A stretch of DNA of 64,000 nucleotides. Origin: Octopus vulgaris. Its lineage: Eukaryota. Positions within the stretch are counted from its first letter, which is position 1; each line of letters opens with the position of its first letter. The notes below the pieces were generated by a model. That model did no database searches. It was not told the DNA's origin and saw only the letters and a program-made list of their open reading frames with translations. Shown piece by piece: positions 9,669 through 61,306 of the stretch. Position numbers and translations under genes: made by a program. Location of the stretch: contig OX597841.1 in assembly GCA_951406725.2 (NCBI GenBank), positions 20,956,001 to 21,020,000 of the forward strand, read 5' to 3'.

Positions 9669-10203
9669 AAACATCGCTGTCAGGAAACCCAACCCACCGT
9701 TCCCCTCCCCTCCCCTCCCCACTCACCTGTTCCCCTCCCTCCCCGTCTCCAGACACCTCCTCCTCCTTCGATCCACACATCCACCCTCTCTCTCTCCACC
9801 CACCCGCTCTCTCTCTTTCTCTTTTTTCTTCACTTCTTTTTCTTTTTCTTCTTTTTTTTCCTTTTCCTTTTCGTTTCCCCCACCCACCCCACCCAACACG
9901 TTTTCCAGTGATGCATCGTCAATCTATCTCTGCTGACATCAGCAGTGCATAACTTTCTACTCCGATGCACTTCTGCACTGTGCAGCCTTTCTGCAACAGA
10001 CAGCTACGGTTACGAATGACGGGGTATGGTGGCAGTGTGTGTGTGTGTGTGTGTGTGTTTCTGTGATTCAGTGTCTGGTGGTGGTCGTGGTGGTGGTGGT
10101 GGTGGTGGTGGTGGTGGTGGTTATTGATGATCTGTAGTATTAGTATTGGGGGGCGGTGTATTTGTAGACAGAGATGAATAACTGTAGTATGGATACAGAA
10201 GAC

Positions 10204-11783
10204 GCCAGAATGTGATTTGAGGGAGATTTGGCTGCTATTTCTAGCATCTACTTACTATACAGAGGTTACCCTCCATTGCCTCGCCAGAATGTGATTTGAG
10301 GGAGATTTGACTGCTATTTCTAGCATCTACTTACTATACAGAGGTTACCCTCCATTGCCTCGCCAGAATGTGATTTGAGGGAGATTTGACTGCTATTTCT
10401 AGCATCTACTTACTATACAGAGGTTACCCTCCATTGCCTCGCCAGAATGTGATTTGAGGGAGATTTGACTGCTATTTCTAGCATCTACTTACTATACAGA
10501 GGTTACCCTCCATTGCCTCGCCAGAATGTGATTTGAGGGAGATTTGACTGCTATTTCTAGCATCTACTTACTATACAGAGGTTACCCTCCATTGCCTCGC
10601 CAGAATGTGATTTGAGGGAGATTTGACTGCTATTTCTAGCATCTACTTACTATACAGAGGTTACCCTCCATTGCCTCGCCAGAATGTGATTTGAGGGAGA
10701 TTTGACTGCTATTTCTAGCATCTACTTACTATACAGAGGTTACCCTCCATTGCCTCGCCAGAATGTGATTTGAGGGAGATTTGACTGCTATTTCTAGCAT
10801 CTACTTACTATACAGAGGTTACCCTCCATTGCCTCACCAGAATGTGATTTGAGGGAGATTTGACTGCTATTTCTAGCATCTACTTACTATACAGAGGTTA
10901 CCCTCCATTGCCTCGCCAGAATGTGATTTGAGGGAGATTTGACTGCTATTTCTAGCATCTACTTACTATACAGAGGTTACCCTCCATTGCCTCGCCAGAA
11001 TGTGATTTGAGGGAGATTTGACTGCTATTTCTAGCATCTACTTACTATACAGAGGTTACCCTCCATTGCCTCGCCAGAATGTGATTTGAGGGAGATTTGA
11101 CTGCTATTTCTAGCATCTACTTACTATACAGAGGTTACCCTCCATTGCCTCGCCAGAATGTGATTTGAGGGAGATTTGACTGCTATTTCTAGCATCTACT
11201 TACTATACAGAGGTTACCCTCCATTGCCTCGCCAGAATGTGATTTGAGGGAGATTTGACTGCTATTTCTAGCATCTACTTACTATACAGAGGTTACCCTC
11301 CATTGCCTCGCCAGAATGTGATTTGAGGGAGATTTGACTGCTATTTCTAGCATCTACTTACTATACAGAGGTTACCCTCCATTGCCTCGCCAGAATGTGA
11401 TTTGAGGGAGATTTGACTGCTATTTCTAGCATCTACTTACTATACAGAGGTTACCCTCCATTGCCTCGCCAGAATGTGATTTGAGGGAGATTTGGCTGCT
11501 ATTTCTAGCATCTACTTACTATACAGAGGTTACCCTCCATTGCCTCGCCAGAATGTGATTTGAGGGAGATTTGACTGCTATTTCTAGCATCTACTTACTA
11601 TACAGAGGTTACCCTCCATTGCCTCGCCAGAATGTGATTTGAGGGAGATTTGACTGCTATTTCTAGCATCTACTTACTATACAGAGGTTACCCTCCATTG
11701 CCTCGCCAGAATGTGATTTGAGGGAGATTTGACTGCTATTTCTAGCATCTACTTACTATACAGAGGTTACCCTCCATTGCCTC
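10204..11783. repeat. 79-bp minisatellite, 20 near-identical copies
   Basis: Unit GCCAGAATGTGATTTGAGGGAGATTTGACTGCTATTTCTAGCATCTACTTACTATACAGAGGTTACCCTCCATTGCCTC, 1580 bp in total, no spacers. Confidence 0.97.
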
Positions 11784-52235: not shown

Positions 52236-52289
<54 letters not shown>

Positions 52290-52340
52290 CATACATACAT
52301 ATATATATATATGTATATATATATATGTATATATATATAT

Positions 52341-52943
52341 ATAATAGAAATATTAAAATTACTAAGTTTCTCTAAAAGAGAACAGCGGCAGCGTTCCCGG
52401 AAAATAATAGTTATCGCCATACTAATATGGCATTCTTATAAAAATAAGAATAAAGCTGTCCGCTTATTAGCTCCATGAGGCCATCGCCTTAAGTTAGCTA
52501 TTTGATACACAAACTGTATCCATATAACCTTCGAACAAGGGAGGTCAGTCGCTCCACACTACTTGACCGGCAGCTACAGACTATTATTTTCCGGGAACGC
52601 TGCCGCTGTTCTCTTTTAGAGAGACTTAGTCATTTTAATATTTCTATTATTGAAAACAAGTGGATGTATTCCACCGAAACTAGGTAAATAAAACCATCGA
52701 ACAGAGATTGTCGGAAGCGACACCTACTGGCTGGCTACGCTGCATTGAAAAGGGGCAATACCCCGAAACGTGTCTGTAGCTGCCGGTCAAGTAGTGTGGA
52801 GCGACTGACCTCCCTTGTTCGAAGGTTATATGGATACAGTTTGTGTATCAAATAGCTAACTTAAGGCGATGGCCTCATGGAGCTAATAAGCGGACAGCTT
52901 TATTCTTATTTTTATAAGAATGCCATATTAGTATGGCGATAAC

Positions 52944-52949
<6 letters not shown>
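52341..52949. mobile_element. Penelope-like cassette with interleaved inverted repeats (A-B-A'-C-B') within (TA)n
   Basis: A 52341-52410 / A' 52581-52650; B 52404-52581 / B' 52772-52949 (essentially perfect). C carries hammerhead motifs. Confidence 0.75.
52739..52780 (+). ncRNA. Type I hammerhead ribozyme with compensatory U3-A8 core
   Basis: GCTGCA-TTGAAAA-GGGG-caata-CCCC-GAAAC-gt-GTC-TGTAGC, with predicted cleavage after 52774. Stem I can extend as CTGGC/GCCGG. Confidence 0.7.
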
Positions 52950-52981
<32 letters not shown>

Positions 52982-53013
52982 TTTATTTAAAGCAGCAGAA
53001 AATTCAACAAAAC

Positions 53014-53063: not shown

Positions 53064-54476
53064 AAAAATTGAGAGTATGATAGAAGAAGGCTGGCTCTTC
53101 TTTCTGTAGAAGATAAAATTCAAATCAGACCATGTTAACACCAAAAATTATTTACGTCAAAAAGGTGCTTTTTTTTTCTATAAAATCCCGATTTTTTTAC
53201 GATTTTTTGACTGCTGTGTCTCCATTTTCCGGTGTATTTCAACCAGAAAAATGTCCACTTAAAGAGAATAACAAGCTACATAATGCAACATTTTTACTTT
53301 TCAAAAATTCCAATTCTAAAGGGTCGAAACAAACCCGAGCAATGCCGGGCGATACTGCTAGTCTCTCTATATATAAAGCTGAAGTTGTCTGTGTATGGCA
53401 GGTTTGGTAGCCTTCAACTAACACTATCTGCTCTGAGACCCTGCGGCACAATTTGACCAAAATTGAGAGTATGATAGAAGAAGGCTGGCTCTTCATTCCG
53501 TAGAAGAAAAAATTCAAATCAGACCATGTTAACACCAAACGTTATTTACATCAAAAATCCCTATTTTTTACGATTTTTTGACTGCTGTGTCGCCATTTTT
53601 CGGTGTATTTCAATCAGAAAAATGTTCACTTAAAGAGAATAACAAGCTACATAATGCAAAATTTTTACTTTTCAAAAATTCCAATTCTAAAGGGTCGAAA
53701 CAAACCAGAGCAACGCTGGGCGATGCTGCTAGTCTCTCTATATATAAAGCTGAAGTTGTCTGTGTATGGCAGGTTTGGTAGCCTTCAACTAACACTATCT
53801 GCTCTGAGACCCTTCGGCACAATTTGACCAAAATTGAGAGTATGATAGAAGAAGGCTTGCTCTTCCTTCCATAGAAGAAAAAATTCAAATCAGACCATGT
53901 TAACACCAAACATTATTTACATCAAAAATCCCTATTTTTTACGATTTTTTGACTTCTGTGTCGCCATTTTTCGGTGTATTTCAACCAGAAAAATGTTCAC
54001 TTAAAGAGAATAACAAGCTACATAATGCAAAATTTTTACTTTTCAAAAATTCCAATTCTAAAGGGTCGAAACAAACCAGAGCAACGCTGGGCGATGCTGC
54101 TAGTCTCTCTATATATAAAGCTGAAGTTGTCTGTGTATGGCAGGTTTGGTAGCCTTCAACTAACACTATCTGCTCTGAGACCCTTCGGCACAATTTGACC
54201 AAAATTGAGAGTATGATAGAAGAAAGCTTGCTCTTCCTTCCATAGAAGAAAAAATTCAAATCAGACCATGTTAACACCAAACATTATTTACATCAAAAAT
54301 CCCTATTTTTTTACGATTTTTTTGACTGCTGTGTCGCCATTTTTCGGTGTATTTCAACCAGAAAAATGTTCACTTAAAGAGAATAACAAGCTACATAATG
54401 CAAAATTTTTACTTTTCAAAAATTCCAATTCTAAAGGGTCGAAACGAACCCGAGCAACGCCGGGCAAAACTGCTAA
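53064..54476 (+). mobile_element. Head-to-tail tandem array of non-autonomous Helitrons (~371-bp unit; 3 full plus 1 5'-truncated)
   Basis: CTAG|TC junctions at 53361/2, 53732/3 and 54103/4. Each unit ends with the CC(C/A)GAGCAA(C/T)GC(C/T)GGG hairpin shared with 6319-6831. Confidence 0.85.
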
Positions 54477-54893
54477 TTATTGTTATATGTAGATATAAGA
54501 AAATTTGTTTTTCTCTCTCTCTGTGTGAATGGATTAGCTTATCCAAGCTTGCAACAATAATATCCTGGAGAGGATTGTATTTACTTCAATCTGATTTTTA
54601 TCCAATGTGTATAGCATCCTCATCCCATTCTCTTTATCTCTGTCTCTCTCTCTCCCCCTCTCAGTCCCCCCTACCACCTCCCCCTCTCTCTAATTCTCTG
54701 GTGCAGTCTGTCAGACAAACAGCTGATACACCACCTTAAGCATGTCACTTTCTTAAACATACTGAATGGAAAAATCTCTACATGGTACTTAATCCTGCTA
54801 GAAATAACAGCCAAATTTCTCTAAATCATTCCTTTCTCTTTGTTTGTATGTATGTATGTATGTATGTATGTATGTATGTATGTATGTATGTAT

Positions 54894-57660: not shown

Positions 57661-57837
57661 TCTTCCTTTTTCGTGTTGTTTGCATCAGCCAAAACTTTTT
57701 TTTTTCTTTTTTTTTTTTTTCTTACTGTTTTTCAAGACTGTAATGGGACGATTTGACAAAGATTTAGCTTCTATTTCTAGCAAATAGTCACCCGATACAG
57801 GTTTTTTCATAGGGCTTGTTCCTGTTGATGTTCTTAC

Positions 57838-58725
57838 TGGTAGTAGTGGTGGTGGTGGTGGTGGTGGTGGTGGTGGTAGAAGATTTGGTGCTGGAATGTG
57901 GTGTGCTATGATGGTGGCAGCGGCGAAGGCGGTGGTGGTGGTGGTGGTGGTGGTTTGGAATATCATGCTGTTGTGTGGCGGCGGCGGTGGTGCTGGTGGT
58001 GGTGGTGGTGGTGCTGGTGGTGGTGGTGGTGGTGCCGTTGCCGGCGGTGATAGTAGTTTGGAATGTGGAATACATGTCGGTGGGTGGGTGGGTGGGTGGT
58101 GGTGGCGTTTGAGCTGTAATTGGAGTTTCCACTGTGATTGTGAGAGAGGAGTAGTGACAGGTTTACGTTGTGAGTATGGGATTGTGTTTGTGTGTGAATG
58201 CCTGCTGGTGGCGGTGGTGGTGCCGGTTGGTGAGTGCGTTTGTGGTGGTGGTGGTGGTGGTAGTAGTGGTGGTGGTGGTGGTAGTGATGATTGTAGTGGT
58301 AGTGGTGGTAGTGGTGGTGGCGGTAGTGGTGGTGGTGGTAGTAGTGGTGGTGGTGGTAGTGGTATGGTGGTGGTGGTAGTGGTGGTGATTGTGGTGGTAG
58401 TGGTGGTGGTGGTGGTGGTAGTGATGATTGTAGTGGTGGTGGTGGTGGTGGTAGTGGTAGTGATGATTGTCGTGGTGGTGGTGGTGGTGGTAGTGGTGGT
58501 GGTGGTGGCGGTAGTGGTAGTGATGATTGTCGCGGTAGTGGTGGTGGTGGTGGTAGTGGTGGTGGCGGTAGTGATGATTGTCGTGGTAGTGGTGGTGGTG
58601 GTGGTGGCGGTAGTGGTGGTGATGGTACTGGTGCTGGTGGTAGTGGTGGTGGTGGTAGTGGTGGTGGTAGTGGTGGTGGTAGTGATGATTGTCGTGGTGG
58701 TGGTAGTGATGGTGGCGGCGGTGGA
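57838..58725. repeat. (GGT/AGT)n trinucleotide tracts
   Basis: Seen directly. Confidence 0.9.
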
Positions 58726-59027
58726 TGTGTGTGTGTGGGTGGGTGTGGGTGTCAGTTTTGAGTGAGTGTGTGAGCGAGATGTAAATGTAAGTTTGAGTGA
58801 CAGGTGAAGGTTGTGAGTGTGAGTGTGAGTGTGAGTGTGAACTTACCGCAGAATAACGTGTGTGTGTGTGTGAATGTGTTCATGAGTGCGTATGTGCCCC
58901 TGTGAGTGTGTGTTCGTGTGTTAATGTGTATGTATGTGAATGTATGTGTGTGCGTGTTTGTGTGTTTGTGTGTGTCTTCAACCAGCGGTTGTCATAGCTA
59001 ACGTTTGTTTATACGTGTATATATGTG

Positions 59028-59066
<39 letters not shown>

Positions 59067-59179
59067 CTGTCTGTTTGTCCGTGTGACTTGTAGTAAAACT
59101 GTCACGGTGGGGTGGCGGGGGTTGTAAACGAGTCTTGAGAGAGACGGCTGTGCCGTTTCTTGTTAAAAAGCTTCGACTA

Positions 59180-60836
59180 CCGCCGCCGCCACAACCGCCA
59201 CCACCACGTCACCACCGCCACAACCACCACCACCGCCACCACCACCACCACGGCGCAAGCACCACCACGTCACCACCGCCACCACCACACGTAACCACCG
59301 CCGCCACAACCCCCCCCCCCCCCCCCCCCCCACGTCACCACCACCACCCCCATCACATCACCACCGCCACCACCACCACGTCACCACCACCACCACGTCA
59401 CCACTGCCGCCGCCACCACCACAACATCACAGTCCCCCCCACGTCACCACCGCCGTCACCACCACCACCGCCACCACATCACCACCGCCACCACATCACC
59501 ACCGCCACCACCACGTCACCACCGCCACCGCCACCACCACCACCACGTCACCACTGCCGCCGCCACCACCACAACATCACAGTCCTCCCCCCACGTCACC
59601 ACCGCCGTCACCACCACCACCGCCACCACATCACCACCACCACCACGTCACCACTGCCGCCGCCACCACCACAACATCACAGTCCTCCCCCCACGTCACC
59701 ACCGCCGTCACCACCACCACCGCCACCATCACCACCGCCACCACATCACCACCGCCACCACCACGTCACCACCGCCACCGCCACCACCACCACCACGTCA
59801 CCACTGCCGCCGCCACCACCACAACATCACAGTCCTCCCCCCACGTCACCACCGCCGTCACCACCACCACCGCCACCACATCACCACCACCACCACGTCA
59901 CCACTGCCGCCGCCACCACCACAACATCACAGTCCTCCCCCCACGTCACCACCGCCGTCACCACCACCACCGCCACCACATCACCACCGCCACCACATCA
60001 CCACCGCCACCACCACGTCACCACCGCCACCGCCACCACCACCACCACGTCACCACTGCCGCCGCCACCACCACAACATCACAGTCCTCCCCCCACGTCA
60101 CCACCGCCGTCACCACCACCACCGCCACCACATCACCACCGCCACCACATCACCACCGCCACCACCACGTCACCACCGCCACCGCCACCACCACCACCAC
60201 GTCACCACTGCCGCCGCCACCACCACAACATCACAGTCCTCCCCCCACGTCACCACCGCCGTCACCACCACCACCGCCACCACATCACCACCACCACCAC
60301 GTCACCACTGCCGCCGCCACCACCACAACATCACAGTCCTCCCCCCACGTCACCACCGCCGTCACCACCACCACCGCCACCACATCACCACCACCACCAC
60401 GTCACCACTGCCGCCGCCACCACCACAACATCACAGTCCTCCCCCCACGTCACCACCGCCGTCACCACCACCACCGCCACCACATCACCACCACCACCAC
60501 GTCACCACTGCCGCCGCCACCACCACAACATCACAGTCCTCCCCCCACGTCACCACCGCCGTCACCACCACCACCGCCACCACATCACCACCACCACCAC
60601 GTCACCACTGCCGCCGCCACCACCACAACATCACAGTCCTCCCCCCACGTCACCACCGCCGTCACCACCACCACCGCCACCACATCACCACCACCACCAC
60701 GTCACCACTGCCGCCGCCACCACCACAACATCACAGTCCTCCCCCCACGTCACCACCGCCGTCACCACCACCACCACCACCACCACCACCACCACCACGT
60801 CACCACTGCCGCCGCCACCACCACAACATCACAGTC
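59180..60836. repeat. (CAC/CGC)-derived higher-order repeat, 100-bp period at the 3' end
   Basis: CACAACATCACAGTCCTCCCCCCACGTC recurs every 100 bp from 60241 onward, with longer variant units upstream. Confidence 0.9.
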
Positions 60837-60906
60837 ACTGAAACTAACAACAACGTTAGTCGCTGCTTCGATTTGGCTTCTTTACCTACCGACACACAGC
60901 CATACA

Positions 60907-61306
60907 CTCTTTTACTCTTTTACTTGTTTCAGTCATTTGACTGCGGCCATGCTGGAGCACAGCCTTTAGTCGAGCAACTCGACCCCGGGACTTATTCTTT
61001 TGTAAGCCTACTACTTATTCTATCGGTCTCTTTTTACCGAACCGCTAAGTGACGGGGACGTAAACACACCAGCATCGGTTGTCAAGCGATGTTAGGGGAA
61101 CAAACACAGACACACACACAAGCATATATATATACATATATACGACGGGCTTCTTTCCAGTTTCCGTCTACCAAATCCACTCACAAGGCTTTGGTCGGCC
61201 CGAGGCTATAGTAGAAGACACTTGCCCAAGGTGCCACGCAGTAGGACTGAACCCGGAACCATGTGGTTGGTAAACAAGCTACTTACCACACGGCCACTCC
61301 TGCGCC
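60907..61306 (-). mobile_element. SINE family A, full length
   Basis: Head-to-tail match. Confidence 0.92.

Follow-up and report, generated by a model that had tools for sequence, protein, structure and literature searches.

How does a short non-coding segment that carries a hammerhead motif come to lie between two (TA)n runs as a pair of inverted copies, one of which breaks next to the predicted cleavage site of the ribozyme? This question is raised by positions 52341-52949 of the window, that is, the entire 64,000-nt stretch of Octopus vulgaris DNA analysed here, to which all coordinates refer. A sequence-only reading of this locus had suggested a direct answer, namely, that the left arm is the cDNA of a linear RNA ending at the hammerhead, joined by template switching, so that the ribozyme itself defined the break. 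Can this answer be maintained once the other copies of the same family are taken into account?

Architecture of the insertion

The insertion spans 609 nt and is bounded by (TA)n runs on both sides. The inverted copy of about 178 bp described in the earlier reading is fully confirmed, given that 52404-52581 and 52772-52949 are 178 nt each and complementary at 100%; furthermore, 52580-52650 recurs inverted at 52341-52411 (71 nt, 97%, 2 mismatches). These parts had been arranged in the order A-B-A'-C-B', and their coordinates and identities hold, but the interleaving does not: when the left part (52341-52581) is reverse-complemented, B' runs into A' without interruption, so that the five parts are best described as two arms of one circularly permuted unit. 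We number this 362-nt unit from window position 52580 (unit position 1). Segment C is held by the right arm and is absent from the left one.

52241..52340: left flank, (TA)n-rich target
52341..52581, minus strand: left arm, a 241-nt inverted copy covering unit 193-362 and then 1-71; it has the tailed 3' end (unit 71), which abuts (TA)n
52341..52411, minus strand: tail segment (A of the earlier reading), about 63 nt that separate the family's two fixed 3' ends
52579..52581: head-to-head junction, with a 2-nt overlap, AC (52580-52581), common to both arms
52580..52949, plus strand: right arm, one full 362-nt unit (52580-52941) and 8 nt; it has the tail-less 3' end (unit 370 = 8), which abuts (TA)n
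52950..52979: right flank, (TA)n target

The left arm does end close to the predicted cleavage site, at GCTACAGAC (52581), as had been noticed, but it overshoots the cut by 1-3 nt instead of stopping there. Specifically, G52579 fits the left arm alone and is the complement of hammerhead C17, and therefore this arm extends at least one base beyond the predicted cut after C52774. No open reading frame for reverse transcriptase (RT) or GIY-YIG endonuclease was detected in the 609 nt between the TA repeats or in the family copies examined. The suggestion that a transcript would form long double-stranded RNA agrees with the predicted fold of a read-through RNA, in which B would fold on B' as a 178-bp duplex and sequester the 3' strand of hammerhead stem I.

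A type I hammerhead with a U3-A8 core

52739..52780, plus strand: type I hammerhead; U3 = 52745, A8 = 52750, predicted cut after C52774
52739-52744 with 52775-52780: stem I, 6 bp
52745-52751: core TTGAAAA
52752-52764: stem II, GGGG/CCCC, 4 bp
52765-52769: GAAAC
52772-52774: GTC
52650..52686, plus strand: upstream hammerhead-like motif, probably degenerate

Two hammerheads had been proposed at this locus, and only the downstream one is upheld. Across 200 copies of this downstream motif, all four letters occur at position 7, U3 and A8 are retained (with single-copy exceptions), and the C3-G8 version does not occur. In the same copies, the closing pair of stem II varies between G-C, G-U and A-U, and one pair of stem I between G-U, A-U and G-C; stem III is palindromic, ACGCGT in the young subfamilies and ACATGT in the old ones. 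RNAalifold applied to 11 copies finds double changes at 6 of the 39 predicted pairs, in related sequences in which the events are not independent. The covariation and the double changes support the assignment of the U3-A8 type I hammerhead, and this pattern of sequence variation fits a dimer-type motif under selection. The upstream motif has A opposite A at the base of stem I and thus lacks a closing pair, and among 168 copies whole subfamilies carry GAAG or GTAA in place of its GAAA, with position 7 invariant, so that a second hammerhead is unsupported. The Rfam search gave no match at the gathering score in the window, and in 52300-53000 at E<=10 it yielded chance matches only, none of them to a hammerhead. 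Descriptors built on C3-G8 would miss the whole retrozyme family together with the Penelope hammerheads seen in this genome.

The present copy carries a rare T at 52771 (C in 132 of 138 family copies), with which the stem III dimer duplex is predicted to weaken from -8.9 to -3.9 kcal/mol. Because it has only one good hammerhead, a weakened stem III and B-B' pairing in the predicted read-through RNA, this copy is probably a dead end. The locus is best viewed as an ordinary, real copy that is probably inactive.

A young, high-copy retrozyme family

A DNA search of the genome (G000) gave at least 135 matches among the 40 of 1180 candidates that were scored, most of them 95-100% identical, and a 28-mer derived from the unit has 2,333 exact matches in the genome, compared with 0 for the reversed control. 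The matches are spaced in tandem at 362 nt, with 1-6 units per arm. Non-LTR retrozymes are recognized by a short non-coding tandem unit (150-450 bp) with a type I hammerhead in each unit; here, the period is 362 nt, and the hammerhead is supported by covariation in the 200 copies, with the U3-A8 core and no Rfam match. The unit contains no coding frame and no terminal direct-repeat structure, and inspection by eye revealed neither a PBS nor a PPT; its GC content is below 50%, and it is strongly self-paired (fold z=-6.9). With no frame carrying RT and GIY-YIG endonuclease, the family does not qualify as an autonomous Penelope-like element, but it has the Penelope form of insertion: a partial tandem, an inverted 5'-truncated copy, a one-ended tail and an AT-rich target. 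The family thus is a young, high-copy, dispersed 362-nt non-LTR retrozyme with a U3-A8 core variant.

Contigs from four sequencing runs, the RNA origin of which is a guess, cover the unit and join its end to its start, and one of these runs has as its sole record a 392-nt cyclic contig; a circle and tandem DNA are indistinguishable in either case, and these contigs are given no weight as evidence. A depth step at 52814 in two runs was dismissed as a start site because it derives from a contig that includes the flank of locus L080. This short copy (G000:C1:82319900-82322100), the flank of which appears in contigs of two of the guessed-RNA runs, may sit in a transcribed region.

The loci were compared in four samples: set 1, with 43 distinct loci in positional order along contig C1; set 2, with the 36 best-scoring loci, including the present one; set 3, with 40 loci from the first 100 matches to the tailed-end pattern and hence selected for the tailed end; and a replicate of 48 further loci, mostly from older subfamilies with 80-90% identity, from which L147 and the local duplicate L211 were left out. 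Duplicate records of single insertions were dropped by coordinates.

Rules of insertion

In sets 1 and 2, which were not selected on ends, 62 of the 79 loci are inverted, invariably minus-then-plus and joined 5' to 5'. The outer ends lie at unit ~71 (tailed) or ~370 = 8 (tail-less), with about 63 nt between them. The inverted loci of these sets include 53 with one end of each kind, none with two alike and 9 with one end elsewhere; one end of each kind is found also in 35 of 35 inverted loci of set 3, given its selection for the tailed end, and in 23 of 28 replicate loci, the rest being one with two tailed ends, the older locus L143, and four others. Of the 3' ends, 65 of 75 and 60 of 66 continue into TA repeats. 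The older subfamilies (L131-L150, L170, L195, L210-L239; 80-90% identity) obey the same insertion rules, with some copies in (TTA)n, not (TA)n. Because both outer ends are fixed 3' ends, the template switching that had been proposed for the present locus is less likely than two priming events.

The arms of a locus share their variants. At unit 323, an approximately 50:50 polymorphism, the arms are concordant in 46 of 46 loci of sets 1 and 2 (25 T/T, 21 A/A), and for two polymorphic sites over all sets, 129 comparisons are concordant and 1 is discordant. Rare substitutions, at positions covered by two or more copies, occur in all copies 18 times (10 of these with at least three copies), in some but not all copies 3 times (one being a local duplication) and in a single copy 141 times; common variants are mixed within a locus in 11 of 114 cases. 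Of 201 arms, 84 are longer than the unit plus tail, the longest reaching 2000 nt, and 119 run across the ribozyme site; an excess of stops after exactly one turn is not seen among the arm ends. At 55 of 90 junctions, the arms overlap by 1-4 nt.

Do the breaks follow the predicted cleavage site?

A ribozyme-defined break is favoured by the arm end lying 1-3 nt from the predicted cut and by the 241-nt length of the left arm, which is close to the distance from tail to cut. Across the family, there is a slight excess of ends near the cut (ratio 1.8-2.1, P 0.07-0.09): when arms at risk are considered, 9 stops fall at 189-201, with 5.1 expected (ratio 1.8, P=0.076). Moreover, all five genome-wide starts at unit 196 are in first-pass arms, and at L206:1440-1520 (G000:C6, near 104.07 Mb) a 44-nt insert separates two arms that both end at 196/197, which makes this locus the best candidate for an insertion from cleaved linear RNA.

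The bulk of the counts goes the other way. Of the 221 refined 5' ends in 118 other loci, 7 are located at 193-199, compared with 4.3 expected (P 0.14) or 3.7 when the hotspot discussed below is left out (P 0.08), and none is at 196. Through 189-201, 187 of 196 passes continue; genome-wide arm starts at 195, 196 and 197 number 4, 5 and 3, against 8 at position 214, the one control used; and the replicate has 2 of 77 ends at 189-201, with 2.8 expected. Thus, other copies show no preference for truncating or inverting at this site, a check that the sequence-only reading had itself put forward, and with end counts, pass read-through, genome-wide starts and the replicate all against them, cleavage-defined breakpoints have to be rejected as the rule. 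At the present locus, C17 is part of the left arm, and the right arm, which has the same haplotype, runs across the site, so that an origin from cut RNA cannot be claimed for it. We therefore regard a ribozyme-defined break here as improbable; the position beside the cut is probably a coincidence, given the lack of preference elsewhere, and most likely the left cDNA stopped at 193-195 by chance. A small share of insertions in the family, up to an approximately twofold contribution, may nevertheless come from cut RNA.

A hotspot of 5' ends at the base of a predicted RNA rod

52688..52831, plus strand: predicted long rod, with the hammerhead at its tip; base helix ~52694-52703 with 52816-52825
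52813..52819, plus strand: 5'-end hotspot (unit 234-240), at the rod base and the CCTT/AAGG hairpin; unused by this insertion

If not at the ribozyme site, where do the arms end? A hotspot is found about 40 nt downstream of the predicted cleavage site: 30 of 221 ends are at 234-240, with 4.3 expected, which corresponds to a stop-rate ratio of 8.4, and in the replicate 10 of 77 ends are at 232-247, with 3.4 expected (P=0.002). The hotspot persists in single-arm copies and in older subfamilies. It is spread across 234-247, and 213 of 249 passes read through it. In both linear and circular predicted folds, a rod some 140 nt long has its base in the pairing of unit 237-247 with 114-124, and the helix at this base is retained across subfamilies. 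Among 69 genome-wide matches to a start at 234, the 41 that begin with CT were set aside, since they probably reflect the loss of one C from a C run (at three places they match deletions observed elsewhere, and L169 is a true end), which leaves 28 clear starts, 24 of them preceded by AA, the signature of fold-back or overlap at the CCTT/AAGG hairpin. A second cluster of 5' ends, at unit 33-45, lies on the tail hairpin. A by-eye look at the hotspot revealed nothing convincing in the way of an HDV-like ribozyme or a polymerase III promoter. These features suggest that the RT stalls on entering a stable RNA structure.

The candidate motor

A GIY-YIG search of the genome gave at least 148 matches among the 150 of 6136 candidates that were scored, several of them in 781-aa frames that combine RVT_1 and GIY-YIG. 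The autonomous Penelope-like elements of this genome have U3-A8 hammerheads, (TA)n targets and a tail of about 34 nt between two alternative 3' ends, and their inverted copies L113, L194 and L201 have one tailed and one tail-less end each. The suggestion that the present locus is a Penelope-type inverted insertion, produced by retrotransposition, is therefore well borne out, since the same form is seen across the family and in these autonomous elements. By this analogy of insertion form, we infer a Penelope-type class of motor.

A particular partner is not evident among the elements covered. The retrozyme shows no sequence likeness to the Penelope-like families at the 30 + 14 loci examined around GIY-YIG matches, and the tails differ; none of the 30 tail matches examined out of 83 belongs to a coding element, all being non-coding copies or tail fragments. 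An RT frame in L147 was rejected as a partner, because it lies 3 kb from the tail and terminates in its own TA flank. The same locus includes, at L147:4826-5026 (G000:C1, near 63.85 Mb), a different short non-coding body with the same 63-nt tail and (TA)n flanks, and the tail may be a cis-signal for several parasites of one Penelope family. At L192 and L193 (G000:C16 and C5), the 781-aa RT/GIY-YIG frame lies behind a second long frame (359-479 aa), in many intact copies; the one such second frame that was scanned has no Pfam family. L192 also has U3-A8 hammerheads 4.8 kb apart.

A scenario for retrozyme movement, and its rivals

What mechanism could leave these traces? The form of the insertions and the haplotype footprints point to two-sided Penelope priming on one, likely circular, RNA; the circle is indicated indirectly, by arms of more than one unit and by rare variants that all units of a locus share. 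We consider it probable, on balance, that this non-coding 362-nt retrozyme, with its predicted U3-A8 hammerhead, is inserted into (TA)n by Penelope-type two-strand priming on one RNA that is probably circular. Under this scenario, tandem transcripts would self-cleave as hammerhead dimers and then be ligated to circles; a Penelope RT/GIY-YIG protein would nick both strands of (TA)n; the two cDNAs would begin at unit 71 and unit 8, respectively; and both would circle one RNA, passing the ligated ribozyme site. Synthesis would stop about 2 times per 1000 nt, with a roughly 8-fold higher rate at the base of the rod that bears the hammerhead, and the cDNA 3' ends would join through microhomology of 1-4 nt. 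A more specific version, to which we give somewhat less than an even chance, has the two subunits of a Penelope RT dimer prime opposite target strands and chase each other round one ribozyme-made RNA circle from sites 63 nt apart. If true, this would amount to footprint evidence for circular RNA as the template of animal retrozymes and for Penelope proteins as their movers, and a doubly primed rolling circle would account for Penelope inverted repeats having a tail at one end only.

The principal rival, which we consider unlikely but by no means negligible, keeps the two-sided priming and replaces the circle with an uncleaved linear multimer, with 234-240 being the RNA's own 5' end, produced by transcription start or processing, rather than a stall. 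The RNA in its unprocessed form is the substrate mainly used by one Penelope element in vitro, according to the available part of PMC11167929; the persistence of the hotspot in single-arm copies and older subfamilies is compatible with such an end, and a very young, homogeneous source array would also account for variants being shared by all units. A linear multimer, however, should put unit-private mutations in the matching units of both arms, and at most 1 of the 3 partial cases does so, against 18 all-copy cases; as for the RNA 5' end, the hotspot is spread out, is mostly read through, is located on a conserved helix and has the fold-back/hairpin-overlap signature at 24 of 28 starts. A related reservation applies to the preferred reading of one RNA as well: the shared haplotype of the arms could result from two RNAs of one source locus.

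Could the second arm be instead a fold-back, self-primed copy of the first cDNA, with endonuclease resolution making the tail asymmetric? Self-priming and endonuclease resolution have been proposed (in the accessible text of PMC3846280 and PMC8557442), and such copying would at once explain the shared haplotype; both arms end within 12 nt of each other at 13 of 90 junctions, 4 of them at the identical base. Against a permuted mean of 8.1, this number is no clear excess (P=0.056), and the other 77 junctions connect different unit positions. Either arm, moreover, can be the longer one, and at the present locus the right arm has segment C, which the left arm lacks. As a general rule, fold-back copying is already contradicted, and we place it slightly below even the ribozyme-defined break. 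The remaining explanation, an assembly or library artefact in the form of a fold-back chimera, would be natural for long perfect inverted repeats flanked by microsatellites, which are hard to assemble. Yet 97 of 119 loci are inverted under the same outer-end rule, A and A' carry 2 differences, and the autonomous elements are alike in form, so that an artefact appears very improbable. We retain two-sided priming on a single, probably circular RNA as the more probable reading.

Other features of the window

Tandem copies with a 371-bp period at 53065-54585, each unit ending in a hairpin and CTAGT, presumably resemble non-autonomous Helitron arrays. At 10203-11783 lies a very young array in which a 79-bp unit is repeated in tandem 20 times with 99% identity. 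A GC-rich low-complexity (CCA/GGT) stretch at 57685-61052 has long open frames; neither these nor the long frames elsewhere in the window have a Pfam family.

Comparison with known systems

The closest known systems are the metazoan non-LTR retrozymes (PMC7229834, Cervera and de la Pena 2020; 10.64898/2026.07.22.740005, Li et al. 2026). The available text of the former describes units of 170-400 nt and circular RNAs, and proposes circular templates, with Penelope elements as motor candidates; that of the latter uses phylogeny to place retrozymes as non-autonomous derivatives of Penelope. The present family shares with them non-coding tandem units of the published size range with GC below 50% and strong self-pairing, the type I hammerhead with a 6-bp stem I, a 4-bp stem II and a palindromic stem III, and thousands of dispersed units alongside Penelope-like elements in the same genome. 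It differs in having the U3-A8 core rather than C3-G8, and its cleavage is a predicted and its circular RNA a putative one. It is set apart from both accounts, as far as their available text goes, by its frequent inversion head to head, its pair of fixed 3' ends and the targeting of (TA)n: the words 'inverted' and 'microsatellite' do not occur in the accessible main text of PMC7229834, nor 'tail' in that of the preprint 10.64898/2026.07.22.740005.

With respect to the insertion form, the obvious counterparts are the EN+ Penelope-like elements. The accessible portions of PMC8557442 and PMC3846280 describe inverted 5'-truncated copies, a tail of 30-40 bp that is often one-ended, a (TA)n bias and a proposal of self-priming; those of PMC11167929 describe a Penelope protein that cuts and extends both strands, two internal RNA starts that bound the tail, and insertion in vitro without a need for hammerhead cleavage. 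In common with these elements and their pseudo-LTRs, so far as these texts describe them, the family has partial tandems, a 5'-truncated copy in inverted orientation at the 5' end, an often one-ended tail, AT-rich targets and a hammerhead upstream of the priming sites; unlike them, it lacks an ORF and has a tail of about 63 nt rather than 30-40 and up to 6 units per arm. The compensatory core change, too, has a precedent: the available text of PMC4209133 reports minimal U3-A8 hammerheads in the Cercyon elements of Schistosoma mansoni, with dimer activity and with dual motifs on opposite strands, separated by 100-700 bp, and proposes a circular template. Compared with the Cercyon motif as given there (minimal, without helix III, in coding elements), the motif described here is of canonical size, has a palindromic helix III and belongs to a non-coding tandem unit.

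In the open main texts, we found no report of this family, of any U3-A8 retrozyme or of same-template evidence for two arms; supplements may hold cases. The U3-A8 core, inverted Penelope insertions and tails are already published; what appears new against these texts is the family, with its U3-A8 retrozyme variant, and its footprints. The value lies in these family-wide footprints rather than in the single locus: fixed priming sites, one end of each kind, the same haplotype in both arms and read-through of the ribozyme site are countable and make proposals on the movement of animal retrozymes testable, and with more than 2,000 near-identical young units, the circular-template and Penelope-protein proposals can be tested with one RNA and one protein.

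An instructive parallel is the twin priming of LINE-1, in which two target strands prime cDNA on one RNA and the resulting inversion is joined by microhomology, with the arms covering non-overlapping parts of a linear RNA. The retrozyme insertions resemble it in the probable two-strand priming on one RNA and in the microhomology at the inversion, and differ from it in that the retrozyme arms overlap, each of them may be longer than one unit, and the two priming sites are fixed.
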